Part shown: piece after piece, positions 20,567 through 53,678 of the stretch
How the letters are laid out: each line of letters opens with the position of its first letter
Position numbering within the stretch: the first letter of the stretch is position 1
NCBI GenBank assembly: GCA_963770045.1
Contig: CAVYOD010000022.1
Location: 41,173-105,172, forward strand
Length of the DNA: 64,000 nt
Source of the DNA: Candidatus Aminicenantes bacterium
Lineage (GTDB): Bacteria > Acidobacteriota > Aminicenantia > Aminicenantales > CAVYOD01
Direction of reading: 5' to 3'
The notes under the pieces: generated by a model
Told to the model about the DNA's origin: nothing
The model's input: only the letters and a program-made list of their open reading frames with translations
Databases searched by the model: none
Program-made: the position numbers and the translations under genes

Positions 20567-21184
20567 ATGGATATCCAGAAAAAAGTTAAGTATGAAGAAG
20601 AATTGGACAGACATTTCCTGGAAGAGATCAAGGATATGTCCGGCTGCGAAGAGATCGACCGCTGCATTCAGTGCGGCACCTGCAGCAGTTCCTGCCCCAT
20701 GTCGATCTATATGGATTATCCCCCGCGCAAGATTATCGCCATGGTCAAGAACGGCTTTAGGGAAGAGGCCCTCAAGAGTTTCACGATCTGGCTCTGCCCC
20801 TCCTGCTACACTTGCCAGGTCCGCTGTCCCGCGAAAATCAAGATCACCGACGTCATGTACGCACTCAAGCGGAAGGCCATCGAGGAAAAAGTCTACCCGT
20901 CCCGCTTCGCCATTCCTGTGCTTGATAAGGAGATGTCAAAGCTGATCGCGGCCAACGGCCGGAGTTCCGATTTGTGGCTTATCCTGAACCTTTATCTCAA
21001 ATCCTGGAACCCCATGGGCCTTCTGAAAATGGCTCCTCTCGGACTGAAGCTCATCAAGACGGGCCGGATGAGCCTGAAAAAGGATGCCATCAAAAACAAG
21101 AAACAACTGCGTACGCTCTTAAAAGCGGTTGTAAGGAGGGAGCTCGATGAACGGCTATGTTTATTTCCCAGGCTGTTCCCTTAA
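20567..21184 (+). CDS. hdrC: heterodisulfide reductase subunit C-like (2x[4Fe-4S])
   Basis: 205-aa ORF with RBS AGGAGG. Motifs CIQCGTCSSSCP and CPSCYTCQVRCP. The 3' end overlaps hdrB by 38 nt. Confidence 0.85.
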   Translation: MDIQKKVKYEEELDRHFLEEIKDMSGCEEIDRCIQCGTCSSSCPMSIYMDYPPRKIIAMVKNGFREEALKSFTIWLCPSCYTCQVRCPAKIKITDVMYALKRKAIEEKVYPSRFAIPVLDKEMSKLIAANGRSSDLWLILNLYLKSWNPMGLLKMAPLGLKLIKTGRMSLKKDAIKNKKQLRTLLKAVVRRELDERLCLFPRLFP

Positions 21185-22031
21185 GGTGAGCGCCAAGCAT
21201 TATGAGGAATCCATCCTTCCTGTTTTCAGGGAAGTCGGACTGCCTCTCGCCGAGCTCGAAGACTGGAACTGCTGCGGCGCCACGGCCTACTCATCGGTGG
21301 ACGATACGATGGCCTCGGCCATCTGTGGCCGCAACCTTTCTCTGGCCGAGAAAACAGGAAAAGACATCATTGCCCCCTGTGCGGGTTGTTATTTGACACT
21401 CAAGAAGTCAAACAAGTTTCTGACCGGAGGTCTTCCCAAAGCCGAAAAAATCCTCAATGATCTGAGAACGGTCGGCTGTGAGTATCAGGGAAATGTCAAG
21501 GTCAAACACCCACTGGAAGTCCTGACCAAGGAGATCGGCCTGGAAAAAATCCGTGAGAGGGTCACCCGGAAGCTCAGCGGGATCAAAGTCGCCTGTTATT
21601 ATGGGTGCCAGCTCGTTCGGCCCTATACCGAGTTCGATGACCCGGATTATCCCATGTCGCTCGATCATCTCATGGAGACGATCGGCGCTCAGCCGGTCGA
21701 TTTTTCGGCCAAGACGCGCTGTTGCGGAGGATCCCTCACCGGCACAATCGAAAACGTCGGCCTCCGGCTGAACTACATCCTTCTCCGGGAAGCCAAAAAA
21801 AAGGGGGCTGATCTCGTCGTCACCATCTGCCCCCTCTGCCAGTTCAATCTCGAAGTCCTCCAAGACAAAATCGTGCGCACCTATAAACAGGACGTGAAGA
21901 TGCCTATTCTCTATTTCAGTCAGCTCATGGGACTGGCTTTTGGCCTGGCCAAGGAGGACCTGGGTTTTTCTCGTTCGATCATACCTCTCAAGGCCCTCTG
22001 GACCAAGCTCGAGAATGGAGGGAAAAGATGA
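21147..22031 (+). CDS. hdrB: heterodisulfide reductase subunit B-like (two CCG domains)
   Basis: 294-aa ORF. YFPGCSL, WNCCGA, APCAGCY, YYGCQ, RCCGG, CPLCQ motifs match the duplicated CCG-domain pattern. Confidence 0.88.
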   Translation: MNGYVYFPGCSLKVSAKHYEESILPVFREVGLPLAELEDWNCCGATAYSSVDDTMASAICGRNLSLAEKTGKDIIAPCAGCYLTLKKSNKFLTGGLPKAEKILNDLRTVGCEYQGNVKVKHPLEVLTKEIGLEKIRERVTRKLSGIKVACYYGCQLVRPYTEFDDPDYPMSLDHLMETIGAQPVDFSAKTRCCGGSLTGTIENVGLRLNYILLREAKKKGADLVVTICPLCQFNLEVLQDKIVRTYKQDVKMPILYFSQLMGLAFGLAKEDLGFSRSIIPLKALWTKLENGGKR

Positions 22032-22882
22032 GCAACCAAAACGGTCAGCCGAGAATCGGAGTCTTTGTCTGCGATTGCGGCACCAATATCGCCGGAAAAG
22101 TCAATGTGCCAGAAGTGGTCGAGTTCGCTTCCCATTTGGACGACGTCATTGTGGCCAGGGAATATAAATTCATGTGCTCGGACCCAGGCCAGGAACTGAT
22201 CAAGCAGAACATCAAGGACCATAACCTGAACCGAGTGGTCGTCGCCTCGTGCTCCCCCCTGATGCACGAACAGACGTTCCGCGAGGTCACGTTTGAGGGC
22301 GGCTTGAATCCTTTTTATTTCCAGATGTCCAATGTTCGCGAGCAGGTCTCCTGGGTGACCAAAGATCCCCAGCAGGCAACCAAAAAGGCCAAGGCGCTGG
22401 TCTCAGCGGCCGTCCGGAGAGTCGCCCTTCATGATCCCCTGACGAAAAAAGAAGTTCCCGTCCGTCCGGAAGTCTTGATCGTCGGCGGCGGGATCGCCGG
22501 AATCCAAGCCGCCTTGACCTACGCCAAGTCCGGGAAAAAAGTCTATCTTGTCGAGAAACAGCCATCCATCGGCGGGCACATGTCCCTGCTCGATAAGACC
22601 TTCCCTACCCTTGATTGTTCCGCCTGCATCCTGACGCCCAAGATGAGCGAAGTCGGAAAACATCCCAACATTGAGCTCCTGACCTGGAGCGAGGTGCAGG
22701 AGATCTCCGGCTACGTCGGGAATTTCAAGGCCAGGATCAAAAAGAAGGCCCGCTTTGTGGATATCGACAAGTGCAACGGCTGCGGCGCCTGCTGGGAAAA
22801 CTGCCCCACCACGATTACCCCGTCGGAACGGATCATCAAAAAAGGCCAGATTGTCATCAAGAAGGTGGACAAAGAAAACTAG
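22028..22882 (+). CDS. hdrA: HdrA N-terminal part (Cys-cluster, FAD-binding fold, first ferredoxin motif) encoded as a separate 284-aa protein
   Basis: GVFVCDCGTNIAGKV, VASCSPLMHE, LIVGGGIAGIQAAL, FPTLDCSACILTPK. Ends with CNGCGACWENCP. ATGA overlap with hdrB. Confidence 0.8.
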   Translation: MSNQNGQPRIGVFVCDCGTNIAGKVNVPEVVEFASHLDDVIVAREYKFMCSDPGQELIKQNIKDHNLNRVVVASCSPLMHEQTFREVTFEGGLNPFYFQMSNVREQVSWVTKDPQQATKKAKALVSAAVRRVALHDPLTKKEVPVRPEVLIVGGGIAGIQAALTYAKSGKKVYLVEKQPSIGGHMSLLDKTFPTLDCSACILTPKMSEVGKHPNIELLTWSEVQEISGYVGNFKARIKKKARFVDIDKCNGCGACWENCPTTITPSERIIKKGQIVIKKVDKEN

Positions 22883-22883
22883 C

Positions 22884-23252
22884 ATGAAACTCAAGGAAGT
22901 TCAGAGCATCCTCGACGCCGAGATCATCTGGGGAAACGAAGCCCAGTTGGAGATCGACATCGACTATGCCGGGGCTTCGGACTTGATGAGCGATGTCTTG
23001 GCCTTCAGCGAGCCTGGGCTTCTCTTCCTCACCGGACTGGCCCACGCTCAGTCCGTCCGGACCGCAAATATCATCGAGGCCAAAGCCATCATTTATGTCC
23101 GCGGCAAGAAGCCGGACATGGAAGGCCTGGAACTGGCCATGGAAAAGGGGATCCCCATCCTCTCTACGAGATGCATGATGTACGAGGCTTGCGGTCTCCT
23201 CCGCAAGCACGGACTCCCTGGAATCACCGAATTCCAAGAAAAAAAGGGATGA
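22884..23252 (+). CDS. DRTGG-domain protein (copy 1)
   Basis: Start set at ATG 22884, 2 nt after the hdrA-N stop. About 122 aa, MKLKEVQSILDAEIIWG...ASDLMSDVLAF...FLTGL...IIYVRGKKP. Resembles the small DRTGG proteins that accompany HydABC-type hydrogenase operons. Confidence 0.7.
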   Translation: MKLKEVQSILDAEIIWGNEAQLEIDIDYAGASDLMSDVLAFSEPGLLFLTGLAHAQSVRTANIIEAKAIIYVRGKKPDMEGLELAMEKGIPILSTRCMMYEACGLLRKHGLPGITEFQEKKG

Positions 23253-23698
23253 TGAACGGCCGAAATGTCTTCACTCGAACTTTCGATATTACCGGCGGCG
23301 ACTTTAGCAAAGCCGGGAATGTCTCGACCCGGATCAAGGACATTCTCAAAGAAATCGGGATCGACTCCTCGATCATCCGCCGCACCGCCATCGCTTCCTA
23401 CGAGGCCGAGATGAATGCGGTCATGTACGCTCATAAGGCTGCGATCACACTGATCTTGAACCCGAAACTCATCGAGCTCAGAATCGATGACCAGGGGCCG
23501 GGGATCCCGGACATCGGATTGGCCATGAAGGAGGGCTATTCTACGGCCACTCAGGAGATGCGCGAGATGGGGTTTGGCGCCGGGATGGGTCTCCCCAATA
23601 TCAAGAAGAATGCCGATAAATTCGAGATCTCATCGACCTTGGGCAAGGGCACCCACCTCGATATCTTTTTTTATCTGGACCAGAAGGGAAAAGCATGA
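23249..23698 (+). CDS. anti-sigma-factor-type Ser/Thr kinase-like ATPase (HATPase_c)
   Basis: Start at ATG 23249 (ATGA overlap). G-box region RIDDQGPGIPD...GFGAGMGLPNIKK...GKGTHL. Confidence 0.7.
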   Translation: MMNGRNVFTRTFDITGGDFSKAGNVSTRIKDILKEIGIDSSIIRRTAIASYEAEMNAVMYAHKAAITLILNPKLIELRIDDQGPGIPDIGLAMKEGYSTATQEMREMGFGAGMGLPNIKKNADKFEISSTLGKGTHLDIFFYLDQKGKA

Positions 23699-25015
23699 TC
23701 CCGTATTTCCACTCGATCCGGGTTGATCGCGAAAAATGCGACGGGCGGATGAAGTGCATGCGGATCTGTCCGACCGAGGCCATCAGAGTCAGAAAAGGGA
23801 AGGCGACGATCATCCCAGAAAAATGCATCGACTGCGGAGAATGCATCACGGCCTGCCCGAACTCGGCTATTATCCCACTGACCAACCCCTTCGGAGAGCT
23901 GACCAAGTTCAGGCACACGATCGCCATCCCGTCTCCAGCGCTTTATGCCCAATTCGGCCGAGAAATTCTGCCCGGGAGAATCCTGGCCGGGTTGAAAAAA
24001 ATAGGCTTCGATGACGCCCACGACCTTGCTTTCACAGCGGGAGAGGTCAGTTTCGCGATCCAGGAATACGTCCGAGAATACAAAGGCCCCAAGCCCCTGA
24101 TATCGAGCACCTGCCCGGTTGTCGTCCGGCTCATCCAAGTCAAGTATCCTGACTTCATAGACCTTATCCTCCCGATTGATAATCCCAGGGAGATCGCCGC
24201 CCGGGAGATCAAAAAAAAGAAATCCAAGCAGTTCGATCTCGAGGAGAAAGAAATCGGCACGTTCTACCTGACTCCCTGTCCGAGCAAGATGATCTCCATC
24301 CGCCAGCCGGCCGAGAAAGGGTCAGTCTCACCTCGACGGGGCCATTGCTATCCAGGATATTTACGGGCCTCTCCTTGCCGCCATGGAAACTATCGAATCG
24401 GAGAGCTACAGGAAAGCGCTGGAGAGCGTTTGCATCCTCGGCATCGGCTGGGCCATGGTGGGAGGGATCTGCCGCACCCTCCGCATGAAGAATTCACTGG
24501 TCGTGTCCGGTTTGCCGGAAATCATCAGAGTTTTCGACGACATCGAGCGCGGAAAGCTGCGCAACATTGATTTTATCGAGGCCTACTCCTGCCCTCAGGG
24601 ATGCGTCGGGGGTTCGCTCACCGTCGAAAACGTCTATATCTCCTATAACAAAATCCTCAAGTTGATTGAGACTCTCGAATTCGAGAAAATCAAGGCGTGT
24701 CCAGACATCCGGGAAGTCAGGAACCTCTACCGGCAGCGGTATTTTCATCTCGAGGGCAAAATAGAACCCCGGCCTCTTAAACCCCTGGATGAGAATCTGG
24801 CCAGGGCCATTTCGAAAAGGAAAGAAAAAGAAAAGATCTATGAATCTTTGCCGCAAACAGACTGCGGAGCCTGCGGCTCCCCGAGCTGCCAGGCCTTCGC
24901 CGAGGATCTCGTCCAGGGAGAGGTCAAGCTCACCGACTGCATCTATAAACTTGCGGGCCTGGAGCGGGCCCGCCCAGAGAGCCTCCCCGGGCAAATAAAA
25001 AAGGATAAACCATGA
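23695..25015 (+). pseudogene. sensory-type [FeFe]-hydrogenase-like protein (2x[4Fe-4S] N-domain, H-domain with variant motifs, C-terminal Cys4 domain); one frameshift as sequenced
   Basis: ORFs 23695-24570 and 24383-25015 join at a GGG run (24319-24321). Motifs: CPTEAI/CIDCGECITACP, L1-like SSTCPVV, L2-like TPCPSK, L3-like EAYSCPQGCVGG, C-terminal CGACGSPSC-x16-C. Confidence 0.75.
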
Positions 25016-25354
25016 AACTCAAAGATGTCGCCGAGAAACTGGGCCTCGAAGTTTTGACCTGCAGAGACAAGACTCGATGGGGAAGTCAGCAACGGTTACG
25101 CCAGCGACCTGCTTTCGGATGTCATCGCTAATTCCCGGGAAAAGAATCTCTGGATCACGCTCCAGACCCATCAAAACATCGTCGCCGTCGCCAAACTCAG
25201 GGACCTGGCCGGGATCATCCTGGTCAATAATCGCCAGCCGGAGGAGCTGACCCTGAAAAAGGCCGAGGAAGAGAAGGTCGTCTTGTTGGCCACTCCCCGC
25301 GCGGCCTTCGAGATTTCGGCCCAACTTTACAGTCTGATGAAAGCCAGGGATTGA
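25012..25354 (+). pseudogene. DRTGG-domain protein (copy 2), frameshifted as sequenced; absent from the supplied ORF track
   Basis: ATG 25012 (ATGA overlap) gives MKLKDVAEKLGLEVLTCRDK. Skipping one base near 25069-25072 continues LDGEVSNGYASDLLSDVIANSREKNLWITLQTHQNIVAVAKLRDLAGIILVNN...LYSLMKARD, with stop at 25352-25354. Confidence 0.7.
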
Positions 25355-25357
25355 TAG

Positions 25358-26089
25358 ATGCTCAAGATTTTTAAAGCGGACCTGCACATTCATACGTGCC
25401 TTTCGCCCTGTTGCGATCTGGAGATGTCCCCGCGAAGCATCGCCGAGCAGGCCAAAAAAAAGGAGCTTCAGATTCTGGGAATTTGCGACCACAACTCGGC
25501 CGAGAATGTCCCGGCGGTTATGAAAGCGGCCAGTCGATTCCAGATCCAAGTCATCCCTGGGATTGAGGTGACATCCCAGGAAGAAGTCCATATCCTGGCC
25601 CTTTTTGCCGACCTCGATTCAGCCTTCGCCCTGCAGGACATCATCTACGGTCACCTCCCCGGAGAAAATGATGAGGCGGCCTTTGGCATGCAGGTTGTGG
25701 TTGACGAGAACGGGGATGTCCTCGGATTTAACAAAAGGCTCCTCATCGGGGCCTCGACGATTGACCTGGAAGGGGTGGTCGTGCGAATCCACACCCTGGG
25801 AGGAATCGCGATCGCATCTCATATCGACCGGGAGGGATTCAGCCTGATCGGTCAGCTCGGTTTTGTCCCCGATAATCTCGGTCTCGACGCCCTGGAAATA
25901 TCTCCGCGGGTTTCATTTCAGACGGCCCGGGAGAGATTCCGTCCCCGCGAGCCTCTGACCACGTCATCGGACGCCCACTTCCTCAGAGATATCGGCCAGA
26001 GCTACACGTCGTTTTCACTTGAGGAGGCGACCCTGGGAGAAATCAAGAAGGCTCTCCTCAACCAGGACGGAAGGAGAATCCTGAACTAG
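25358..26089 (+). CDS. PHP-domain (polymerase/histidinol phosphatase-like) metal-dependent phosphoesterase
   Basis: 243-aa ORF. ADLHIHTCLSPC...GICDHNSAEN...ASHIDR...SSDAH motifs. Confidence 0.8.
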   Translation: MLKIFKADLHIHTCLSPCCDLEMSPRSIAEQAKKKELQILGICDHNSAENVPAVMKAASRFQIQVIPGIEVTSQEEVHILALFADLDSAFALQDIIYGHLPGENDEAAFGMQVVVDENGDVLGFNKRLLIGASTIDLEGVVVRIHTLGGIAIASHIDREGFSLIGQLGFVPDNLGLDALEISPRVSFQTARERFRPREPLTTSSDAHFLRDIGQSYTSFSLEEATLGEIKKALLNQDGRRILN

Positions 26090-26096
26090 GAGAGTC

Positions 26097-26675
26097 ATGG
26101 AAGACCTTTCCCTGCACATCCTGGACATCGCCGAGAACTCCGTCGACGCCCAGGCCAAGACCGTCAGGATCCGGTTAGCGGAAGACCAGCCCAAGGACCT
26201 TCTGGTCCTGGAAATCGCGGATGATGGAAGAGGGATGGACCAAGAAATGATCGAGCGCTCCCTAGACCCCTTTGTGACGACCAAGACGACCCGTAGCGTG
26301 GGCCTGGGCCTTCCCCTTCTGGCCGAAGCCGCCAGAGCAGCTAACGGGAAGCTGCGGATTCAATCGAGGCCCGGTCAGGGAACCCGGGTCAAGGCGACCT
26401 TCCAGTTGAGCCACATCGATACCAAACCGCTGGGAGACATCGCCCAGACCCTGATCACTCTGATCGTCGGGCATCCTGAGGTGGATTTTCTTTACTCCCA
26501 CAAAATCAATAGATTCCGATTTACATTCGACACCCGAGAGCTCAAGGACAAGATCGACGGCCTTCCCCTGCAAGCGCCGCAGGTCGTGAGCTTTATCAAA
26601 AAAAACATCAACGACGGGCTAGACCGAATAAGGAGGAAAAATGAACGAAGTCAAGATCACGGGAATTCTCGGTAA
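26097..26675 (+). CDS. HATPase_c-like ATP-binding protein
   Basis: 192-aa ORF. LHILDIAENSVDA (N-box-like), LEIADDGRGMD, GLGLPLL, GQGTRV. Confidence 0.7.
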   Translation: MEDLSLHILDIAENSVDAQAKTVRIRLAEDQPKDLLVLEIADDGRGMDQEMIERSLDPFVTTKTTRSVGLGLPLLAEAARAANGKLRIQSRPGQGTRVKATFQLSHIDTKPLGDIAQTLITLIVGHPEVDFLYSHKINRFRFTFDTRELKDKIDGLPLQAPQVVSFIKKNINDGLDRIRRKNERSQDHGNSR

Positions 26676-27096
26676 GTACGAATCTGATCCGAGCGATATC
26701 ATCTCCATCCTGCAGGACATCCAGGAAGCCTACAGCTATCTTCCGAGAGAGGCCTTGAAAGAGGTCTCGAAAGAGCTCAACATCCCGCTCAGCCGGATCC
26801 TGAGTCTGGCGACGTTCTACAGGGCCTTCAGCCTGAGGCCTAAAGGCAAACACCCCGTTCACGTCTGCCTGGGAACAGCCTGCCACGTGCGTGGGGCCCA
26901 GCTCGTCTTAGAAAAATTTGAACGAGAACTAGATCTCAAGACGGGAGAAACGTCAACCGATGGCCTCTTCAGTCTAGACATGGTTCGCTGTGTCGGATGC
27001 TGCGGCCTCGCCCCTGTCGTCCAGGTTGGGGAAGAAATCCACGGCAAGATTACCCAGACCAAGGTTTCTGGGCTGGTCAAGAAATATAAAAAGTGA
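26641..27096 (+). CDS. NuoE/HydC-like [2Fe-2S] thioredoxin-fold subunit
   Basis: 151-aa ORF. ATFYRAFSLRPKGKHPVHVCLGTACHVRG...CVGCCGLAPV. Confidence 0.88.
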   Translation: MNEVKITGILGKYESDPSDIISILQDIQEAYSYLPREALKEVSKELNIPLSRILSLATFYRAFSLRPKGKHPVHVCLGTACHVRGAQLVLEKFERELDLKTGETSTDGLFSLDMVRCVGCCGLAPVVQVGEEIHGKITQTKVSGLVKKYKK

Positions 27097-27109
27097 AGAA
27101 GGGGGAGAC

Positions 27110-27499
27110 ATGCCAAAACTCAACATTAACGATCTCGTAAAACTCAGAGAGCAGGCTAAGAAAACAACCCAGATCCGAGAGGGAGGAGAATACCGGGCCA
27201 AAATCAATGTCCACATGGGCACGTGCGGAATCGCGGCCGGGGCCCGAAACATCATGAGCGCCCTCCTCAAGGAGATCGAAGCGCGTGACGTCCGGGACGT
27301 CCTGCTCACCAATTCCGGCTGCGCCGGCCTCTGCAGCCACGAGCCGATGATCACCGTCGAGATGGCCGGCCGTCCTCCCGTCAAATACATCGACCTGACG
27401 GAAAAAAAGACCAAAGAGATTTTCGAAAAGCACATCCTGGGTGGGACGATCCTAAAAGATTACGCGTTGGGGATCGGCAGCGAAAAGACGGATTATTAA
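27110..27499 (+). CDS. thioredoxin-like [2Fe-2S] ferredoxin
   Basis: Start at ATG 27110 (GGGGGAG RBS). 129 aa. INVHMGTCGIAAGA...SGCAGLCSHEPM. Confidence 0.8.
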   Translation: MPKLNINDLVKLREQAKKTTQIREGGEYRAKINVHMGTCGIAAGARNIMSALLKEIEARDVRDVLLTNSGCAGLCSHEPMITVEMAGRPPVKYIDLTEKKTKEIFEKHILGGTILKDYALGIGSEKTDY

Positions 27500-27506
27500 G
27501 AGGTGT

Positions 27507-29345
27507 TTGAAAATGGCAGAGAAAACTAAAGAGAGAAGCTACAGGCTCCATCTGATGGTCTGCGCCGGGACTGGCTGCGTCTCCAACCACTCCTTTGAAG
27601 TCAAGGGGGCCCTGGAAAAAGAAATCAAGAAGCAGGGCCTGGAGAACGAAGTCCTCGTGGTCACCACCGGCTGCAACGGTTTTTGTGAGCGTGGACCTCT
27701 CCTCGTCGTCCAGCCGGGGAATATTTTTTATCAACAGCTGACGGTCAAAGATGTCCCCCATCTCGTCGAGGAACACTTTCTCAAGGGCCGGCCCGTCGCC
27801 AAATTGATGTACACTCCCCCCGAAGAAAAAAATCCTATCCCTGTTCTCAGCGATATCGATTTTTTCAAAAAACAAGTCTTGATCGCCCTCCGGAACCGCG
27901 GCTTGATAGATCCCGAGAAAATCGAGGATTACATCGCCCGCGATGGTTACAAGGCCATGGCCAAAGCCCTGACCGAGATGATCCCGGAGAAGATCATCAT
28001 GGAGATGACCTTCTCCGGCCTTCGCGGAAGAGGGGGAGCCGGATTCCCCACCGGATTGAAATGGCAGCTCGTCCGGAGCGCCGAGAGCGCCAACGGCGGA
28101 GGCAAATACATCATCTGTAACGGTGATGAAGGAGATCCGGGAGCCTTCATGGACAGAAGCATCCTTGAAGCCGATCCTCATTCGGTCTTGGAGGGGATGG
28201 TCATAGGAGCTAAGGCCATCGGCGCCTCCGAAGGGATCATCTATGTCCGGAATGAGTATCCACTGGCCGTGAAAAGAGTAAATCGGGCAATTGAACAGGC
28301 CAGGGAATATGGCCTCCTGGGAAAAGACATTTTGGGCACAGGCTTTGACTTTGATGTCAGAGTCCACAGGGGAGCCGGAGCTTTTGTCTGCGGAGAGGAA
28401 ACAGCCTTGATCTCGTCTATTGAAGGACGGCTGGGCGAACCCCGACCCCGGCCTCCCTATCCCGCCCAGAGCGGGCTCTTTGGAAAGCCCACCTGTATCA
28501 ACAATGTGGAGACTTGGGCCAATGTCCCGGTGATCATTGACCGCGGCGCCAAATGGTATTCGCGAATTGGAACCGAAACCAGCAAAGGGACAAAAGTCTT
28601 CTCCCTGGTCGGGAAGATCAATAACACCGGTCTGGTCGAGGTTCCCATGGGAATATCCCTGAGGGAAATCATCTATGACATCGGGGGGGGAATTCCGGGA
28701 GGCAAAAAGTTCAAGGCGGTTCAAACCGGCGGGCCATCGGGGGGGTGCATTCCCAAAGAAAAAATCGATTTGCCCATCGACTACGAAAGCTTGAGCCAGG
28801 CGGGTTCGATGATGGGCTCGGGCGGCATGGTCGTCATGGACGAAGACACCTGTATGGTTGATGTGGCGAGATACTTTCTCTCCTTTACCCAGGATGAGTC
28901 TTGCGGGAAATGCACACCCTGCCGTGAAGGGACAAAGGCTATGCTGAGCATTTTGACCCGGATCACCGAGGGGAAGGGCACCGGAGACGACATCGCTCTG
29001 CTGGAAGACCTGGCCCACTCCGTGAAGGACACCGCTCTCTGCGGCTTGGGGAAGACCGCGCCTAACCCGGTCCTGACCACTCTCCAGTATTTCCGGGACG
29101 AATATGAAGCCCATATCAAGGAGAAAAGATGTCCCGCCCATGTCTGCCGTCAGCTCAACGTGTACACGATCAACGCGCAAACCTGCGTCAAGGCGGGCCA
29201 CGGCTGTGATGTCTGCCGCCGCAACTGCGCCTCGGATGCGATCGCGGGCGAAAAAGGCGCTGCCCACAAAATTGACCAGCGTAAGTGCATCAAATGCGGC
29301 GTCTGCTATGATGTCTGCAATTTCGGCGCCGTGAAGGTTGAATAG
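27507..29345 (+). CDS. NuoF/HydB-like NAD(H)-binding flavoprotein with N-terminal [2Fe-2S] and C-terminal 2x[4Fe-4S] domains
   Basis: 612-aa ORF. MVCAGTGCVS..TGCNGFC, GRGGAGFPTGLKW, NGDEGDPGAF, ESCGKCTPCREG, CIKCGVCYDVC. Confidence 0.9.
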   Translation: MKMAEKTKERSYRLHLMVCAGTGCVSNHSFEVKGALEKEIKKQGLENEVLVVTTGCNGFCERGPLLVVQPGNIFYQQLTVKDVPHLVEEHFLKGRPVAKLMYTPPEEKNPIPVLSDIDFFKKQVLIALRNRGLIDPEKIEDYIARDGYKAMAKALTEMIPEKIIMEMTFSGLRGRGGAGFPTGLKWQLVRSAESANGGGKYIICNGDEGDPGAFMDRSILEADPHSVLEGMVIGAKAIGASEGIIYVRNEYPLAVKRVNRAIEQAREYGLLGKDILGTGFDFDVRVHRGAGAFVCGEETALISSIEGRLGEPRPRPPYPAQSGLFGKPTCINNVETWANVPVIIDRGAKWYSRIGTETSKGTKVFSLVGKINNTGLVEVPMGISLREIIYDIGGGIPGGKKFKAVQTGGPSGGCIPKEKIDLPIDYESLSQAGSMMGSGGMVVMDEDTCMVDVARYFLSFTQDESCGKCTPCREGTKAMLSILTRITEGKGTGDDIALLEDLAHSVKDTALCGLGKTAPNPVLTTLQYFRDEYEAHIKEKRCPAHVCRQLNVYTINAQTCVKAGHGCDVCRRNCASDAIAGEKGAAHKIDQRKCIKCGVCYDVCNFGAVKVE

Positions 29346-29356
29346 GAGGGCCAAAA

Positions 29357-31114
29357 ATGATTAACCTGACAGTCGACGGAAAGAAGGTTCAAGTTGAAGA
29401 AGGAGCGACAATCCTCCAAGCGGCCAAGAAGGCCGAGATCCAGATTCCGACACTGTGCTACCATCCTGTCGTCGAAGCCTACGCGGCCTGCCGGGTCTGC
29501 ATGGTGGAGTCTATGGTCAAGGGGAAATCCGAGTTGGTAACAGCCTGCAACACGAAAGTCCAGGAAGGGATGGAAGTCCAGACAAGATCAGAGCGCGCCC
29601 TGCGGGCCCGCCGGCTCAACGTGGAGATGCTCATGGCCCGGGCGCCCGCGGCGGAGCCTGTCCAGAAAATCGCCAGGGAGCTAGGAATCGAAAAGACCAG
29701 GTTTGAAATCAAAGATCCGGAAGAAAAATGCATCCTCTGCGGACTGTGCGTCCGGGCCTGCGAGCAAATCGTCGGAGCCAACGCCATCAGTTTTGTCGAT
29801 CGGGGGACCGACCGGAAGGTCATGCCTCCCTTCGGGGAACAATCCGAAGCCTGCATCGGCTGCACCGCCTGCGCCTATTTCTGTCCGACCGGGGCGATCT
29901 CGGTGGAAGATAAATACGGCCGGAAGGTCATCCACGACGAGCTTCATCTCGGCCCTTCGACAGCCATCCGCGTTCCCATCCGCCAGGCTGTTCCGATGGT
30001 CCCGTTTATTGACAAGGATGCCTGTATCCACTTCAAAACCGGGGAATGCAAAGTCTGCGAGAAGGTCTGCGACCGGCTGGCCATTGACCACAAGATGGAG
30101 GACAAGGAGATCGAGATCGAGGTCGGCACCATCATCCTGGCCTCGGGTTTCAAACCTTTTGATGCCAAGAGGATTCCCGCGTACGGCTACGGGAGGTACG
30201 ATAATATCCTCACAGCGATGGACTTTGAAAGGCTGGTCAATGCCTCGAGCCCGACCGGCGGAAAAATTCTCATGACCAACGGGGAAGAACCAAAATCGGT
30301 CGGCATCATCCACTGTGTCGGCTCCCGTGACGAAAATTACAACGAATATTGTTCCCGGGTCTGCTGCATGTATTCTCTCAAGTTCGCCCATCTGCTGCGA
30401 GAAAAAACCAAGGCCGATATCTATGATTTCTATATTGATATGCGCTGTTTCGGCAAGGGCTACGAAGAGTTCTACCACCGCCTTCTCGAGGAAGGAACAA
30501 AGTTCATCAGGGGGAGGGTCTCGGAGATCTCAAGTATCGCCCTGACGGCTCGGGAGGAAGGGAAACTCATCATCCGGGTAGAGGACACTCTCCTGGGAGC
30601 AGTCAGGAGAATCCCGGTGGACATGGCCATCCTGAGTGTGGGGCTGGAGCCCGGACTGGATCACAATCAACTGGCTAGGACTTTCAACATTTCCTGCAGC
30701 CAGGACACCTTCTTCCTGGAACGGCACCCCAAGCTCGCTCCGGTCTCGACATTTTCAGACGGCATTTTCCTTGCGGGGACCTGTCAGGGACCGAAAGATA
30801 TTCCGGATAGCGTCGCTCAAGCCGGGGCAGCGGCTTCGGAGGCCATGGCCCTGGCCGATAAAGGCACGGTCGAGCTAGAACCGGTGACGGCCTCGATCGA
30901 TGAGGAGCTCTGTTCGGGCTGCCAGCTCTGCGTCGGCCTCTGCCCCTTCACGGCCATCACGTTCGACAAGGAAAAAGAGATCTCGGCTATCAACGACGTT
31001 CTCTGCAAGGGCTGTGGAACCTGTGTCGCCGCCTGCCCGAGCGGGGCTTCCGCCCAGAAGCACTTCAGAGATGAGCAAATCTTCGCCGAAATCGAGGGGA
31101 TCCTTGTCGTTTAG
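29357..31114 (+). CDS. fusion protein: NuoG/HydA-N-terminal-like [2Fe-2S] + 2x[4Fe-4S] module joined to the C-terminal two-thirds of HdrA
   Basis: 585-aa ORF. N-part LTVDGKKVQV..IPTLCYHP..CRVCMVE, CILCGLCVRAC, CIGCTACAYFCP. HdrA part AIRVPIRQAVPMVPFIDKDACIHFKTGECKVCEKVC, HCVGSRD..YCSRVCCMYSLK, LAGTCQGPKDIPDS, C-terminal CSGCQLCVGLCP/CKGCGTCVAACP. Confidence 0.8.
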   Translation: MINLTVDGKKVQVEEGATILQAAKKAEIQIPTLCYHPVVEAYAACRVCMVESMVKGKSELVTACNTKVQEGMEVQTRSERALRARRLNVEMLMARAPAAEPVQKIARELGIEKTRFEIKDPEEKCILCGLCVRACEQIVGANAISFVDRGTDRKVMPPFGEQSEACIGCTACAYFCPTGAISVEDKYGRKVIHDELHLGPSTAIRVPIRQAVPMVPFIDKDACIHFKTGECKVCEKVCDRLAIDHKMEDKEIEIEVGTIILASGFKPFDAKRIPAYGYGRYDNILTAMDFERLVNASSPTGGKILMTNGEEPKSVGIIHCVGSRDENYNEYCSRVCCMYSLKFAHLLREKTKADIYDFYIDMRCFGKGYEEFYHRLLEEGTKFIRGRVSEISSIALTAREEGKLIIRVEDTLLGAVRRIPVDMAILSVGLEPGLDHNQLARTFNISCSQDTFFLERHPKLAPVSTFSDGIFLAGTCQGPKDIPDSVAQAGAAASEAMALADKGTVELEPVTASIDEELCSGCQLCVGLCPFTAITFDKEKEISAINDVLCKGCGTCVAACPSGASAQKHFRDEQIFAEIEGILVV

Positions 31115-31180: not shown

Positions 31181-31209
31181 TAGAAAATTGTCGTTGACTT
31201 GGATATAAT
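31181..31209 (+). promoter_or_regulatory. promoter candidate upstream of mvhD
   Basis: TAGAAA-17 nt-TATAAT (perfect -10), about 50 nt before the mvhD ATG. Confidence 0.4.
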
Positions 31210-31259: not shown

Positions 31260-31706
31260 ATGAGCAATGGACCGTTTGAACCCAAGCTTGTTGGGTTCTT
31301 ATGCAACTGGTGCTCTTATACCGGCGCCGACCTTGCCGGAACAGCGAGAATGACCTATGCCCCCAACCTCCGCATCATCCGGGTCATGTGCAGCGGGCGC
31401 GTCGATCCTCAATTCGTCTTAAAAGCGTTCGCTGAGGGTGCTGACGGGGTGCTCATCTCCGGCTGCCATCCCGGAGACTGCCACTACCAAGAAGGGAATT
31501 ATAAAGCCTTGCGAAGAGCGAAACTCCTTTCCCGGGTGCTGCAGGAATTCGGCATCGAAAAGGAAAGATTTAGGCTGGAATGGGTTTCCGCTTCGGAGGG
31601 AGTCAAGTTCCAGCATGTCGTCAACGAGTTCACTGCGCAGGTCAAGAAACTGGGGCCGTTGGGTTTCAAAGCGAACGGAGGCAAGCATGAGTCAAGCCAA
31701 GCCTAA
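31260..31706 (+). CDS. mvhD: MvhD-type hydrogenase iron-sulfur subunit
   Basis: 148-aa [18 protein letters not shown]...[10 protein letters not shown]...GCHPGDCHY. Confidence 0.88.
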
Positions 31707-32667
31707 GGTGGCCTTTTACTGGTGTTCATCCTGCGGAGGATGCGAAGAATCCATCGTCGACCTAGCCGCGGACATTTTGAAAGTCGTCGCCGCGGTCGAC
31801 ATCGTCTTCTGGCCGGTCGCGTTGGATTTCAAGAAAAAGGATGTGGAGGCCATGCCCGACGGCTCGATCGCCGTGAGCTTCATCAACGGCGCTGTCCGGA
31901 CCTCAGAGCAGGAAGAGATGGCCCATCTGATGAGGAAAAAATCGCAGCTCGTCGTCGCGCACGGCGCTTGCGCTCATCTGGGCGGAATCCCCGGACTGGC
32001 CAACTTCTGGAACAAAGAGACGATCTTCCGAAAAGTCTATCACACAACCGTCTCCACGGACAACCCCAACAAGACCGTCCCTCAAGAGAAGAGCATGGTT
32101 GACAATTACGAATTAACTCTGCCCCGATTCTGGGACACGGTTTATCCCCTGGACAAGATCATCGATGTGGATTACTACCTGCCCGGGTGCGCGCCTCACC
32201 GTGATCTCATCATCAACGCCGTCAATGCCATTCTCGAAGGAAAGCTTCCGCCCAAGGGTGCCGTTCTCGCTCCGAATAAATCCTGCTGTGATGATTGCGA
32301 GAGGAACAAAACTAAGCCGGAAAAGCTCTCGATCAAGGAAGTCAAACGCCCCTACGAAATCCAGCTCGACCCGGAAAAGTGCTTCCTGGCCCAGGGGGTC
32401 ATCTGCATGGGCCCGGCCACCCGCGGCGGATGCGGCGAACGCTGCATCGAGGGCAACATGCCGTGCCGCGGCTGCATGGGGCCGACCGACCAGGTCTATG
32501 ACCAAGGGGCGAAATTCCTCTCCGCCTTTGCTTCCATCCTGGATACCAACGATGAGAAGGAAATCGAAAAAATCGTCTCGACGATCGTCGACCCTGCCGG
32601 GACCTTTTATCGTTTCAGCCTGCCCTCATCGATTCTCAGACGCAAAAGACTGGAGGCCGTAAGATGA
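31687..32667 (+). CDS. mvhG: Mvh-type (F420-non-reducing) [NiFe]-hydrogenase small subunit
   Basis: Start at ATG 31687 (GGAGG RBS; overlaps the mvhD end). [34 protein letters not shown], medial/distal cluster Cys motifs. Confidence 0.85.
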
Positions 32668-34124
32668 CCCAAAGAATAACCATCGATCCAATCACCAGGC
32701 TTGAAGGCCATGGAAAAATCGAGATCTTCTTAAACGACAAGGGCGACGTGGACCGGGCTATTCTCCAGGTCCCCGAGCTGAGGGGCTTTGAGCAGTTCGC
32801 CGTGGGACGGCCGGTGGAAGAAATGCCCCGGATCACTCCCCGCATCTGCGGAGTTTGTCCCATGGCCCACCACATGGCCGGAACCAAGGCCGTGGACGCC
32901 GTCTTTCACGTCGAACCGACACCCACCGCCCGGAAAATCCGGGAGCTGGTCTACAATGCCTTCACCATGGAGGACCACACCCTCCACTTTTTCTTCCTCG
33001 GCGGCCCGGATTTTGTCGTCGGGCCGCAGGCTCCGGCTGCTGATCGGAATATCCTGGGCGTTATCGGCAAGGTCGGGCTTGAGATCGGAGGCCGGGTCAT
33101 CCACATCCGCGAAGCGGTCCGGGAGATCATGGTCCACCTTGGCGGCAAGGCCATCCATCCGGTCCTGGGGCTGCCGGGCGGCGTCTCCAAGGCTTTGGAC
33201 GAAGAGCACAGGGTCAAGTTCCTGGAGACGGCCAAGGATGCCGTGGAGTTCGCTGAATTCGCCCTCCAGATCTTTGACGACGTCGTCCTCAAAAACAAAA
33301 CCTACGTCGATATCGTTGTCGGCGACGCTTATAAGATCAAGACCTACTACATGGGGATGGTCACGGACAAAAACCAGGTCGAATTCTATGACGGGGACAT
33401 CAAGGTTGTCGACCCAGAGGGAAAGGACTTCGCCCGTTTCAAGGCAAGCCAGTATCTCGAGCATATCGCCGAGCACGTCGAGCCCTGGACCTATGTCAAA
33501 TTCCCCTTCCTGAAGAAAGTCGGCTGGAAGGGCTTTGTCGAGGGGAAGGACAGCGGAGTTTACCGGGTAGCTCCGCTCGCCCGTCTCAATGTCGCCGACG
33601 GAATGCAGACCCCCCGGGCGCAAAAGCACTACGAGCGGATGTACGCTACCCTGGGCGGAAAGCCCGTCCACAACACCCTGGCCTTCCACTGGGCTCGCTT
33701 GATCGAGGCCCTCCAGGCCGCTGAGAAGATGGTCCAGCTTCTGGAAGACAAGTCCATTACCGGCAAAGATATCCGCACGATCCCGACCCAGACCCCGACC
33801 GAAGGGGTGGGTATCGTCGAAGCTCCCCGCGGCCTGCTGATTCACCACTACAAGACCGATGAGAAGGGGATCGTCACCGACGCCAACTTGATCGTGGCCA
33901 CGATCGGAAACGCAGCGGCCATCAACATGTCGATCGAGAAGGCGGCCAAGACGTTCATCAAGGGCGGGATCGTGTCCGAGGGACTCCTGAACATGGCCGA
34001 AATGGCCTTCCGTCCCTATGATCCCTGCCACGGCTGCGGGACTCATTCACTGCCCGGGGAAATGCCGCTGATCATCAATATCTACGACAAAGACAGAGAG
34101 CTGGTGAAGCAGCTCAAGCGATAA
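32664..34124 (+). CDS. mvhA: Mvh-type [NiFe]-hydrogenase large subunit
   Basis: 486-aa ORF. RLEGHG, N-terminal Ni-ligand motif PRICGVCPMAHH and C-terminal DPCHGCGTH followed by a 25-aa tail. Confidence 0.9.
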   Translation: MTQRITIDPITRLEGHGKIEIFLNDKGDVDRAILQVPELRGFEQFAVGRPVEEMPRITPRICGVCPMAHHMAGTKAVDAVFHVEPTPTARKIRELVYNAFTMEDHTLHFFFLGGPDFVVGPQAPAADRNILGVIGKVGLEIGGRVIHIREAVREIMVHLGGKAIHPVLGLPGGVSKALDEEHRVKFLETAKDAVEFAEFALQIFDDVVLKNKTYVDIVVGDAYKIKTYYMGMVTDKNQVEFYDGDIKVVDPEGKDFARFKASQYLEHIAEHVEPWTYVKFPFLKKVGWKGFVEGKDSGVYRVAPLARLNVADGMQTPRAQKHYERMYATLGGKPVHNTLAFHWARLIEALQAAEKMVQLLEDKSITGKDIRTIPTQTPTEGVGIVEAPRGLLIHHYKTDEKGIVTDANLIVATIGNAAAINMSIEKAAKTFIKGGIVSEGLLNMAEMAFRPYDPCHGCGTHSLPGEMPLIINIYDKDRELVKQLKR

Positions 34125-37528: not shown

Positions 37529-37556
37529 CGAGACGTCCTCTTTTTGCCCAGCGATT

Positions 37557-39759: not shown

Positions 39760-39769
39760 GGAGGAGACG

Positions 39770-46573: not shown

Positions 46574-48349
46574 CTATTTCGCGTCGCTCAGCACGCCCTC
46601 GATCTCAGAAAAGATCTGCTCGTCCTTGAAGTGCCTCTGATAGGAGGCGGAACTCGGGCAGGCCGCGACACAGGTCCCACAGCCCTTGCAGAGGGCCTCG
46701 ATCACCTTGGAAATATTCTCTTCGGCTGAAAATTCGATCGCGCTGTAGGGACAGAGGTCGTTGCAGACCCGGCAGCCGGCGCAGAGCTCAGGGTCGATGT
46801 AGGCCGTGATCGGCGCGATCTCGACCTCGCCCTTGGCGATGACGGCAAGGATCCGGGCCGCGGCAGAACTGGCCTGAGCGACCGTATCGGGAATATCCTT
46901 AGGCCCCTGGCAACAGCCGGCGATAAAGACCCCATCCGTGGCCGTGGCTGTGGGGTCAAGCTTGGGATGCTTTTCCAGGAAGAATCCATCCGGGCTCCGG
47001 CTGATCGAAAAGAGCCGCTGGATCCTGTCCGCGTCCTTCTGGGGCTCGACGGCGCCGCAGAGGATAACGGCATCTACCGGGATTTCCCGGAATTTCCTGA
47101 TCAGAGTATCTTCGCACCGAACAAGCAAGACTCCTTCATCTTTCTTCGACCAGCTCGCCTTCACGACCTCGGCCACCCGGCCGCGGATGACATTGACACC
47201 CTCGTCCAGGATCCGGCTGTAGAATTCCTCGTAGCCTTTTCCGAAGGCTCGCATGTCGATGTAGAACTGATAGACCTCGGCACCCTCCATCCGGTCCCTG
47301 ATCAGATGGGCGAACTTCAGGGCGTACATGCAGCAAATGCGCGAACAATAGGCATGGTGGTTGATATCACGTGAGCCGACGCAATGGACGATGGCCACCG
47401 CTCTGGGCTCCTTGCCGTTTTTGAGGAGGATTTTGCCTCCGGTCGGCCCAGAGGAATTGAGCATGTACTCCACCTCGAGGCTTGTATAGACGTTATCCAG
47501 CTGGCCGTAGCCGTACTCGGCCATCTTACGGGCGTCGAACAGATCATATCCGGTGGTGAGCAGGATCTGACCGACCTCGAACTCATCGAAGCGCGGCTCC
47601 TGTTTGTGGTTGATGGCCATGGGCTCGCAGACTCTCTCGCAGATTTTGCATCCGCCCGTCTTGAAATGGATACAGGCCTCCTCGTCGATCACCGGGATCT
47701 TGGGGACGGCCTGGAAAGTGGGAATGTAGATCGCACTTTCGGGCCCGAGGGTGAATTCCCTCGTCTCTCCCGGGCGCTCCCAGGACGGCTCGATCCGGAT
47801 GTGCTTGGTCGGACACACGGCGGCGCAGGCGCCACAGCCGATGCAGGCCTCGGTATCGATCTCGAAGGGAGTGCAGATCTCGCGGTGGACTCCTCGTCCT
47901 TCCCAGCCGATCGCGTTCGCCTGGACGACTTCGCTGCACATCCGGACGCAGAGGCCGCAGCCGATGCAGGTCTCGTTGAGTTTCTTGAACCTGGTTTCCT
48001 TGACTCCGTATTCTTCGGCCAGCGCCTTGATAACATCCACCTCGGGGCAACGGGCCAGGAGGAGCTCCAGAATCAGCTTCCGATTCTCGATGACCCAGTC
48101 GGTGTTCGTGAAGATCTCTTCTCCCTCCTGGGCGGGGTAATTGCAGGCCGTGACCAGCCGTTTTTTGCGCCCCTTGCGCATCTCCACCGAACAGACCCGG
48201 CAGCTCCCGTAAGGCTCGAGGAAGTCCCAGTGGCAGAGGGTCGGGATGCGGATCCCCAACTGAGCGGCCAGCTTGATCACCGGGGTTCCCCGGGGAGCTT
48301 TGACCTCGTTTCCGTCTATCTTCAGGGTGACGATCTTCTTTTCTTCCAT
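46574..48349 (-). CDS. second [2Fe-2S]/2x[4Fe-4S]::HdrA C-part fusion protein (paralogue of 29357-31114)
   Basis: 591-aa ORF, colinear with the locus-1 fusion. IPTLCHWD..CRVCSVE, CIGCGLCVRMC, CIGCGACAAVCP, AIYIPTFQAVPKIPVIDEEACIHFKTGGCKICERVC, HCVGSRD..YCSRICCMYALK, CKGCGTCVAACP. Confidence 0.8.
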   Translation of the reverse strand: MEEKKIVTLKIDGNEVKAPRGTPVIKLAAQLGIRIPTLCHWDFLEPYGSCRVCSVEMRKGRKKRLVTACNYPAQEGEEIFTNTDWVIENRKLILELLLARCPEVDVIKALAEEYGVKETRFKKLNETCIGCGLCVRMCSEVVQANAIGWEGRGVHREICTPFEIDTEACIGCGACAAVCPTKHIRIEPSWERPGETREFTLGPESAIYIPTFQAVPKIPVIDEEACIHFKTGGCKICERVCEPMAINHKQEPRFDEFEVGQILLTTGYDLFDARKMAEYGYGQLDNVYTSLEVEYMLNSSGPTGGKILLKNGKEPRAVAIVHCVGSRDINHHAYCSRICCMYALKFAHLIRDRMEGAEVYQFYIDMRAFGKGYEEFYSRILDEGVNVIRGRVAEVVKASWSKKDEGVLLVRCEDTLIRKFREIPVDAVILCGAVEPQKDADRIQRLFSISRSPDGFFLEKHPKLDPTATATDGVFIAGCCQGPKDIPDTVAQASSAAARILAVIAKGEVEIAPITAYIDPELCAGCRVCNDLCPYSAIEFSAEENISKVIEALCKGCGTCVAACPSSASYQRHFKDEQIFSEIEGVLSDAK

Positions 48350-50203: not shown

Positions 50204-50217
50204 TGTATGGCTCCTCC

Positions 50218-52825: not shown

Positions 52826-52838
52826 CAGAACCTCCTTG

Positions 52839-53523: not shown

Positions 53524-53678
53524 TACTCCTAACCTCCTGTTCCTAAACATGAAGAATGACATAGAGAAACCGAACCTCGTTTTCGGGCCAGCTTGGCTCT
53601 CTCTCTCTTCCTTCCAAACGGACCGTTGAACATGTTCGGACGATTGCGCATAGCACTTCTCTCTGAATCGAAATAACC

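Follow-up and report, generated by a model that had tools for sequence, protein, structure and literature searches.

A divided HdrA flavoprotein encloses genes for a predicted Bfu electron-bifurcating core in Candidatus Aminicenantes

HdrA, a flavoprotein that ordinarily divides electron pairs in microbes using hydrogen, and the unrelated Bfu module are two of the four known electron-bifurcating enzyme families. Here we describe a gene arrangement that joins them, in a 64,000-nt stretch of DNA from a Candidatus Aminicenantes bacterium (Acidobacteriota; assembly GCA_963770045.1, contig CAVYOD010000022.1, positions 41,173 to 105,172 of the forward strand), called the window below, with positions counted from its first nucleotide. 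Alignments show HdrA to be encoded as two predicted polypeptides that jointly hold each element of bifurcating HdrA once, the break lying between the two cysteine motifs of its inserted ferredoxin domain. The genes nested between the halves code, as read from their translations, for BfuC, an HndB-like protein and BfuB, which together make up a whole Bfu bifurcating core, and the C-terminal half begins with a BfuA-type module. The explanation that we favour overall, with somewhat better than even confidence, is that the ferredoxin-reducing exit of HdrA would be hard-wired to this Bfu core, linking H2, disulfide, NAD(H) and ferredoxin. The window holds two such loci (Table 1); residue numbers are those of locus 1 unless stated.

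Results

Two polypeptides tile a full-length HdrA

The N-half is the 284-residue product of an open reading frame (ORF) at 22028–22882 (+) and the C-half belongs to the 585-residue product of 29357–31114 (+). The 6,474 nt between them agree with the 6.5 kb given by an earlier reading of the DNA that had proposed a split HdrA (the original prediction). Residues 7–265 of the N-half match residues 3–261 of HdrA (PDB code 5ODC, chain A; E = 7.7e-99) and its best non-HdrA match reaches only E = 2e-7, which places it with HdrA rather than with unrelated flavin adenine dinucleotide (FAD) oxidoreductases. The expected CxCGxNI and GGGIAG motifs read VCDCGTNI and GGGIAG, and there is a single CNGCGACWENCP near the end; the protein was thought to stop right after this cysteine motif and in fact continues for a 25-residue tail. 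The ligand cysteines (15, 17, 50, 75, 197, 200, 249, 252, 255 and 259) are each 100% conserved in 35 orthologues, the first six giving the HdrA N-terminal-domain set (C11, C13, C46 and C71 of 5ODC) together with Cys197. In the C-half, residues 198–583 match residues 265–642 of HdrA 8RVV_A (E = 3e-122), which bears out its assignment as the remainder of HdrA. This segment supplies motif 2 of the inserted ferredoxin domain (C223, 231, 234 and 238), the cluster cysteines of the thioredoxin-reductase (TrxR) domain (C320, 332, 336 and 337) and the flavin residues E291 and K342, which are equivalent to E356 and K409 of 5ODC HdrA, the hallmarks of a bifurcating HdrA flavin (PMC12054007).

The 5ODC_A sequence was rebuilt from search alignments and aligned to the N-half joined to residues 198–585 of the C-half, giving 53.4% identity over 638 positions. 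Nine of the 647 HdrA residues compared (3–649) are unpaired, the two pieces do not overlap, and insertions reach five residues or more at just two places, the tail of the N-half and a 5-residue insert in cysteine motif 2. All 26 cluster-ligand cysteines of HdrA map exactly once over the two pieces, as do E356 and K409; ten of the cysteines lie on the N-half (N-terminal domain, C194/C197 and motif 1) and sixteen on the C-half with E291 and K342. The TrxR [4Fe-4S] site (C386, C399, C403 and C404 of HdrA) and the inserted and C-terminal ferredoxin domains (eight cysteines each) are all accounted for, and every ligand cysteine is 100% conserved in 35 N-pieces and 39 C-pieces, including both window paralogues and Chloroflexota proteins. 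The original prediction thus fares well on its central point: the pieces neither overlap extensively nor miss an essential segment, and they cover the cluster cysteines and the tested flavin residues once each. Every sequence feature of HdrA is found, with the exception of a single polypeptide (~650 residues).

In the 2×[4Fe-4S] ferredoxin fold, each cluster takes three cysteines from one motif and one from the other. Because motifs 1 and 2 are on separate chains here, both clusters of the inserted domain would be ligated 3+1 across the chain boundary; and because this domain sits inside the thioredoxin-reductase fold, the two chains must associate to complete the FAD site. It follows from HdrA anatomy that the FAD pocket is shared, with the GxGxxG Rossmann part and Cys197 on the N-half and the equivalents of E356 and K409 and the second FAD segment on the C-half. 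That the halves form one HdrA is, in our judgement, very probable. We also considered whether the second cysteine motif of BfuA, which HMMER aligns with HdrA motif 1, might replace that motif and make the N-half dispensable; this was rejected because BfuA needs both of its own motifs, GxGxxG is found only on the N-half, and motif 1 is invariant.

The nested genes and the fused module resemble Bfu subunits

The 585-residue protein opens, as had been described, with a [2Fe-2S] domain (residues 1–78 match Fer2_4, E = 5e-20) and an 8Fe ferredoxin, read here as two CxxCxxCxxxC motifs at 125–135 and 166–176. The fused module had been likened to the N termini of NuoG and HydA, and this likeness holds: residues 2–196 match the BfuA chain of the bifurcating tungsten aldehyde oxidoreductase Wor (9MQX_A, E = 2.7e-40), the N terminus of HydA1 (8A6T_A, E = 1e-32) and the N termini of HydA and NuoG proteins. 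Direct reading of residues 80–120, where a His-ligated cluster would lie, finds no Cys or His. The module has clusters A1/A2 plus A4, as in the Wor-, F420- and Bam-Bfu clade, and only ~20 residues join its ferredoxin-like domain to HdrA motif 2.

NuoEF-type genes were correctly placed between the halves by the original prediction, although they make up a complete Bfu-type core rather than a plain NADH dehydrogenase module. The best PDB matches of BfuC are all BfuC subunits (NfnC 9N5U_C, Wor 9MQX_C and HydC 8A6T_C). BfuB matches NiFe-HydB of A. mobile along its full length (7T2R_B, E = 7e-261, residues 12–609 against 4–594) and aligns end to end with HydB, Wor BfuB and NfnB of bifurcating enzymes; NuoF chains of non-bifurcating complex I cover only its residues 135–548. 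By published criteria (PMC9304861), the B2 ligands are conserved (C438, a Thr in place of C476, H525, C531 and C536); the N-terminal CAGTGC...GCNGFC motif and two C-terminal cysteine motifs are also present. The HndB-like protein has no Pfam match and is a free-standing paralogue of the N-terminal [2Fe-2S] domain of BfuB. Every Bfu feature that can be tested in sequence is found in BfuA, BfuB and BfuC.

A longer BfuB (~1020–1080 residues) occurs in loci L004, L010, L017, L034, L036 and L045 (Aminicenantes), L037 and L038 (Chloroflexota), L077 and L078, in which a GltD/NfnB-like domain (Fer4_20 plus Pyr_redox_2) replaces the C-terminal 2×[4Fe-4S] unit. This assignment comes from Pfam runs on L004 and L038 and precomputed Pfam matches for L077 and L078, and for the others from a similarly truncated nuoF match together with a 1.4-kb gap. 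The GltD-bearing form suggests NADPH, rather than ferredoxin, as a candidate partner.

The split is conserved

N-half homologues, clustered at 90% identity, form at least 120 clusters, all of 281–288 residues, and C-half homologues likewise form at least 120 clusters of 584–593 residues; more than 100 independent Aminicenantes assemblies share this break. Scanning a single genome for each species gave 73 loci, ~40 of them from Aminicenantes. These ~40 keep the order hdrC, hdrB, hdrA_N, regulatory cassette, nuoE, hndB-like, nuoF, C-half, mvhD, mvhG, mvhA, and hdrCB is kept in every complete locus. The split-HdrA arrangement is that of a widespread family and is not peculiar to one genome. The window itself is 96% identical to a chromosome-level Aminicenantes metagenome-assembled genome (OY969586.1). 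Loci L002, L003, L004, L007, L009 and others are ~80% identical and fully syntenic, and are titled 'uncultured Eubacteriales' or 'Clostridiales bacterium', labels that are probably wrong.

The same break and fusion had been noted in a paralogous locus of the window, and this recurrence holds. In locus 2 the halves are 2,763 nt apart, tile 5ODC_A at 53.2% identity and carry the flavin residues as E294 and K345.

Unsplit and intermediate relatives

A search for unsplit or intermediate forms, suggested with the original prediction, found several kinds. Proteins P0276 (870 residues) and P0277 (883 residues) are single chains in which a short linker joins an N-half to a C-half, and they are 65% identical to our N-half and 56% to our C-half; their length matches the sum of the two window proteins (284 + 585 = 869 residues), and the P0276 gene directly follows hdrC-hdrB. 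P0133 is a single chain lacking the N-terminal domain that adjoins AOR-type and Fer4 genes, and P0132 is an unsplit HdrA with only an extra 2×[4Fe-4S] unit between the two motifs. Three loci (L074 6858–8129, L075 2794–4065 and L077 1221–2495) encode a 423–424-residue fusion of HdrA_N (FAD-Rossmann and motif 1) to NuoE (BfuC), followed by NuoF and BfuA-N::HdrA_C. Electron-transfer flavoprotein (ETF) genes lie near this fusion in L074 and L075, and an acyl-CoA dehydrogenase gene in L074, neighbours that may point to involvement in fatty-acid oxidation or syntrophy.

Among the 150 best representatives at 50% identity, at least 12 have the BfuA-N::HdrA C-part architecture, starting with the BfuA module. 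Most of the best 120 relatives of one BfuA-N::HdrA_C protein are ~1060–1125 residues long; their named sources are Chloroflexota, Dehalococcoidia, WOR-3, TA06, Poribacteria, Planctomycetes and Thermoplasmata. A complete Dehalococcoidia genome (CP070819.1) has hdrC, hdrB, a 143-residue N-piece, nuoE, nuoF and a 1080-residue C-piece, and the Chloroflexota loci L037 and L038 show a minimal Mvh-linked form, hdrCB-hdrA_N-nuoE-nuoF-AC-mvhDGA. Bacterial HdrA proteins of 1109–1129 residues carry a GltD/NfnB-like insertion at the same site (L050 7685–11074, Planctomycetota; L038 105–3434, Chloroflexota); in the literature covered, type III (GltD-insert) HdrA is recorded only from ANME-1 and Bathyarchaeota (PMC12054007, PMC9012536).

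We modelled the single-chain P0276 with AlphaFold2 from a 60-sequence alignment (pLDDT 80.8, pTM 0.72). Its two main low-confidence linkers are residues 260–277, directly after motif 1 at the position of the stop codon in the window N-half, and residues 473–485, between the BfuA ferredoxin-like domain and the following HdrA segment. Foldseek places the model on HdrA 5ODH_A with a TM score of 0.88 (normalised to the target), and the inserted module superposes on Wor BfuA 9MQX_A over 186 columns, the root-mean-square deviation being 1.8 Å.

The inserted ferredoxin domain is a known insertion site for NAD(P)H-linked modules (PMC12054007). The original prediction read the arrangement as gene fission within the ferredoxin insertion; the division does fall inside that domain, although simple fission seems to describe the layout less well than a bfuCBA cassette set inside hdrA, apparently at a site that repeatedly accepts foreign redox modules. 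We take this view because some relatives are fused at both edges (HdrA_N::NuoE and BfuA-N::HdrA_C) and because unsplit BfuA-bearing forms exist.

Four loci from Anaerolineae and other Chloroflexota (L055, L062, L065 and L068) encode an unsplit HdrA with an in-frame TGA exactly at Cys197 (DCAA*IL). The codon most likely specifies selenocysteine; the residue at this position is a ligand of the N-terminal cluster of the partner subunit.

Gene organization and surroundings

Table 1. Genes and modules of the two loci, in window positions.
Feature	Position	Strand	Description
hdrC, locus 1	20567..21184	+	2×[4Fe-4S] subunit; Pfam Fer4_8/Fer4_17; directly upstream of hdrB in ~40 loci
hdrB, locus 1	21147..22031	+	Pfam CCG, 2 stretches; matches HdrB 8RVU_b, E = 1.6e-49
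HdrA N-half, locus 1	22028..22882	+	284 aa; N-terminal cluster domain, FAD Rossmann part of TrxR fold, Cys197 equivalent, motif 1 of inserted ferredoxin domain
DRTGG-domain protein	22884..23252	+	Pfam DRTGG, E = 3e-4, under curated cutoff; syntenic in Aminicenantes loci
Histidine-kinase-like ATPase	23249..23698	+	Pfam HATPase_c / HATPase_c_2
HydS-like sensory [FeFe]-hydrogenase homologue	23695..25015	+	Pfam Fer4, Fe_hyd_lg_C and PF04060 FeS; frameshifted
Second DRTGG-like small gene	25012..25351	+	Three-frame reading against intact L006 orthologue; frameshifted near 25080
PHP-domain phosphoesterase	25358..26089	+	Pfam PHP and PHP_C
Second histidine-kinase-like ATPase	26097..26675	+	Pfam HATPase_c, E = 4e-18
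BfuC (NuoE-like [2Fe-2S] subunit), locus 1	26641..27096	+	Pfam 2Fe-2S_thioredx (PF01257), E = 4e-48
HndB-like small [2Fe-2S] protein, locus 1	27110..27499	+	129 aa; matches 8OH5_B residues 2–90, E = 1e-13
BfuB (NuoF-like), locus 1	27507..29345	+	FMN/NAD site, B1, B2 ligands, C-terminal 2×[4Fe-4S] (B3/B4), N-terminal [2Fe-2S] (B5)
BfuA-type N-terminal module (aa 1–197 of 585-aa protein)	29357..29947	+	[2Fe-2S] C34, 45, 48, 64; [4Fe-4S] motifs C125–135, C166–176
HdrA C-half (aa 198–585), locus 1	29948..31114	+	Motif 2 of inserted ferredoxin domain, rest of TrxR/FAD fold, TrxR-domain cluster, C-terminal 2×[4Fe-4S] domain
mvhD	31260..31706	+	Pfam FlpD, E = 9e-57
mvhG	31687..32667	+	[NiFe]-hydrogenase small subunit; Pfam Oxidored_q6
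mvhA	32664..34124	+	[NiFe]-hydrogenase large subunit, Mvh / group 3 type; MvhA 5ODC_F, E = 3e-119; 7T2R_D, E = 5e-117
BfuA-N::HdrA C-half, locus 2	46574..48349	-	591 aa, 52% identical to locus 1 protein
BfuB, locus 2	48359..50221	-	620 aa
HndB-like protein, locus 2	50218..50607	-	Translation nearly colinear with locus 1 protein
BfuC, locus 2	50620..51081	-	Translation clearly homologous to locus 1 BfuC
HdrA N-half, locus 2	51113..51958	-	281 aa, 58% identical to locus 1 N-half
hdrB, locus 2	51955..52825	-	Three-frame translation; one frameshift ~52600–52620 after ...LALAEK
hdrC, locus 2	52825..53562	-	ORF and sequence similarity to hdrC

In locus 1, neighbouring genes overlap or lie at most 15 nt apart from hdrC to the HydS-like gene and from the PHP gene to the C-half; the apparent 342-nt gap between these two runs is occupied by the second DRTGG gene, and DRTGG-like matches stand at this position in many loci. 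The hdrB stop codon overlaps the hdrA_N start by 4 nt, and both CCG cysteine motifs of HdrB are readable. A 145-nt gap precedes mvhD, after which mvhD, mvhG and mvhA overlap. Promoter-like sites, which are weak evidence, lie at 20280–20308 upstream of hdrC (11 of 12 matches) and at 31181–31209 before mvhD (10 of 12); terminator-like sites in the same scan were at chance level. MvhA is about equally close to methanogen MvhA and to the large subunit of the A. mobile Bfu-hydrogenase.

The six-gene cassette of DRTGG, HATPase, HydS-like, DRTGG, PHP and HATPase genes is absent from locus 2 and from the Chloroflexota loci, which marks it as an addition to the core design and not a part of it; it probably gives H2-responsive regulation. 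Compared with the L001/L002 orthologues, the HydS-like gene has a 1-nt insertion at 24318–24322 that leaves two overlapping ORFs, an assembly indel or a pseudogene. Beside the P0277 gene, locus L079 (7521–9494) encodes a 657-residue HydS-like::HisKA::HATPase protein, which condenses the sensor cassette into a single polypeptide; two response regulators come next.

The interval between the two loci (34195–46412) is a hydrogen-metabolism island. It holds a Cache/HAMP sensor kinase with a sigma-54 response regulator (34195–37528), a [NiFe] hydrogenase operon of four genes that includes Fer4_22 and FAD/NAD-binding subunits and resembles group 3b (sulfhydrogenase; 37787–42306), a hybrid kinase (43720–44817) and, assigned from translations rather than a family search, a likely maturation protease with hypB and hypA (44835–46412).

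Discussion

A proposed supercomplex in which HdrA feeds Bfu

The Bfu part probably belongs to the same complex as HdrA, a single supercomplex that would comprise MvhADG, HdrA (N plus C), HdrBC and BfuBC, with the fused BfuA module docking BfuBC as in other Bfu enzymes. We are more guarded about the exact wiring and direction, to which, arguing from topology and analogy, we would give a little short of an even chance. [quoted passage not shown] By analogy with both, the low-potential branch of HdrA would be wired to the Bfu core, its ferredoxin exit covalently tethered to the BfuA cluster chain that leads to the BfuB flavin mononucleotide (FMN). In locus 1, Mvh would oxidise H2 and the HdrA FAD would bifurcate the electrons to HdrBC (for a putative disulfide) and to the Bfu core, which would pass its share to NAD+ and ferredoxin; the whole scheme may be reversible. 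From textbook potentials we estimate that the mean acceptor potential would be about −270 mV, against about −320 mV in the methanogen enzyme. As half of the low-potential electrons would fall to NAD+, H2 oxidation could proceed at lower H2 pressure. Because the host is bacterial (Aminicenantes), its disulfide is probably something other than CoM-S-S-CoB; no methanogenesis genes were found among the window ORFs examined.

Several observations weigh against this scheme. [quoted passage not shown] Locus 2 lacks mvh genes, and a frameshift interrupts its hdrB in the assembly. The unsplit P0277 has no adjacent nuoEF, and the BfuA-like insertion may thus sometimes be only an extended Fe-S wire. In a neighbour-joining tree (100 bootstraps) built on the TrxR C-part common to 37 sequences of the split, unsplit and inserted types, backbone supports are mostly below 50, so we draw no order of events or count of origins from it.

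The BCRII precedent points to the strongest alternative, that the flow is reversed: Bfu would confurcate NADH and reduced ferredoxin as a second source of electrons for the HdrA FAD, in addition to Mvh or in its place, while the fusion at the inserted domain would be a mere tether and the low-potential output would go to free ferredoxin or another partner. Without hydrogenase genes in locus 2, Bfu would be its only obvious electron donor, and relatives adjoin ETF and acyl-CoA dehydrogenase or AOR genes, not hydrogenases. We nevertheless hold this wiring to be unlikely: the BfuA ferredoxin-like domain is only ~20 residues from HdrA motif 2, locus 1 already has the canonical input port in its mvhD gene and intact C-terminal ferredoxin domain, and GltD insertions into the inserted ferredoxin domain have been read as a repurposed ferredoxin site (PMC12054007).

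Still less probable is a [NiFe] confurcating hydrogenase, in which Bfu would combine fermentative NADH and reduced ferredoxin and pass the electrons through HdrA and MvhD to MvhAG for H2 production, with HdrA mainly an adaptor and HdrBC regulatory or minor. Aminicenantes are usually predicted to be fermenters, and an H2-sensor-type cassette (HydS-like, PHP and HATPase genes) of the sort found beside Bfu hydrogenase operons lies inside locus 1, both of which would suit such an enzyme. Its weakness is that the disulfide branch looks functional, as we argue from the conserved bifurcation hallmarks K409 and E356, the two intact CCG motifs of HdrB and the presence of hdrCB in every complete locus.

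To the idea that the split reflects an artefact or gene decay, with a normal hdrA broken by a frameshift, stop codon or misassembly, we attach practically no weight, and we reject it on conservation: frameshifts do occur in three neighbouring genes (HydS near 24320, the second DRTGG gene near 25080 and hdrB of locus 2 near 52610), but 6.5 kb of conserved, intact genes separate the halves, the break has constant protein lengths (at least 120 clusters of each half) across more than 100 independent assemblies and recurs in ~40 syntenic loci, two window paralogues and other phyla, and the ligand cysteines are all invariant, as expected from the original prediction that no local assembly artefact was involved. 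Three frameshifts within ~30 kb suggest long-read indel errors rather than gene decay.

Returning to the scheme in which HdrA feeds Bfu, we put forward, tentatively and with clearly less than even confidence, that split HdrA with nested Bfu represents a so far uncharacterised class of double-bifurcation supercomplex that is widespread among uncultured anaerobes, with members in Aminicenantes and Chloroflexota (Dehalococcoidia among them) and, where the partner modules differ, in many other phyla. Such a complex would place an HdrA-type FAD and a Bfu-type FMN/Fe-S site in series through the low-potential branch, with the FAD pocket and both exit-domain clusters built across a subunit interface, and its Mvh-linked form would couple H2 oxidation to the simultaneous reduction of disulfide, NAD+ and ferredoxin. 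The arrangement is also a natural experiment, both in which parts of HdrA can be separated (a FAD fold and a 2×[4Fe-4S] domain made from two chains) and in how the HdrA ferredoxin exit may be repurposed. Current annotations of the halves vary between "FAD-dependent oxidoreductase", "2Fe-2S-binding protein" and "heterodisulfide reductase subunit A", so that metabolic reconstructions from genomes count HdrA wrongly and overlook how these Mvh-Hdr systems connect to NAD(H).

Comparison with known systems

Neither a split HdrA nor an HdrA–BfuA fusion is described in the literature found by full-text search, which did not cover Appel et al. 2021 (BBA). One of the closest known systems is the MvhADG-HdrABC complex of hydrogenotrophic methanogens, a group 3c [NiFe]-hydrogenase joined to HdrABC (5ODC; Wagner et al. 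2017): locus 1, unlike locus 2, has mvhD, mvhG and mvhA together with hdrC, hdrB and hdrA, and shares all six HdrA clusters, Cys197, E356, K409 and both HdrB CCG motifs. It differs in that HdrA is here two chains cut inside the inserted ferredoxin domain, with a BfuA module on the C-half and with Bfu core genes, plus the sensor cassette in locus 1, between the halves.

Type 1 Bfu enzymes (HydABC, Nfn-Bfu and F420-Bfu; PMC9304861) share the complete BfuB/BfuC core with clusters B1–B5 and C1 and FMN, the BfuA pattern of one [2Fe-2S] and two [4Fe-4S] clusters seen in the Wor-, F420- and Bam-Bfu clade, and an extra redox domain after the BfuA ferredoxin-like domain. In the window, by contrast, that extra domain is two-thirds of another bifurcating flavoprotein and is incomplete without the separate N-half. 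An HdrA-type Bfu is absent from the Bfu classification (PMC9304861), whose supplement has no Hdr or Aminicenantes entries. The closest solved relative of our BfuB is from A. mobile NiFe-HydABCSL (7T2R), whose [NiFe] large subunit is nearly as close to MvhA as that of the methanogen. In that enzyme BfuA is the direct docking partner of the hydrogenase, by way of cluster A3; the window BfuA lacks that cluster region, and HdrA and MvhD would stand between hydrogenase and Bfu.

Type III HdrA (GltD insertion; ANME-1 and Bathyarchaeota; PMC12054007, PMC9012536) likewise has a foreign NAD(P)H-linked module at the inserted ferredoxin domain. There it is a single GltD domain in one chain, whereas the window, at the same site, has a BfuA-type module belonging to a three-to-four-subunit Bfu module, and the host gene is split.

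Two bifurcation modules in one complex were first reported in 2026 for BCRII (BamBCDEFGHI), where this is called previously unreported (bioRxiv 10.64898/2026.04.10.717634). BCRII also combines HdrA-type and HydBC/Bfu-type modules with an MvhD-like adaptor and an HdrBC-like subunit. Its BamE, however, is a fused HdrA dimer without a split, BamI forms a subunit of its own, and the inserted ferredoxin domain feeds the tungsten enzyme BamBC; no AFOR/AOR gene lies in or beside either window locus, and locus 1 has a [NiFe] hydrogenase instead. The attachment point of Bfu differs as well. The locus described here would thus be a second, differently wired union of HdrA and Bfu, encoded by nesting the genes of one system in the flavoprotein gene of the other, linked to a [NiFe] hydrogenase and common in abundant uncultured bacteria of sediments and the subsurface.

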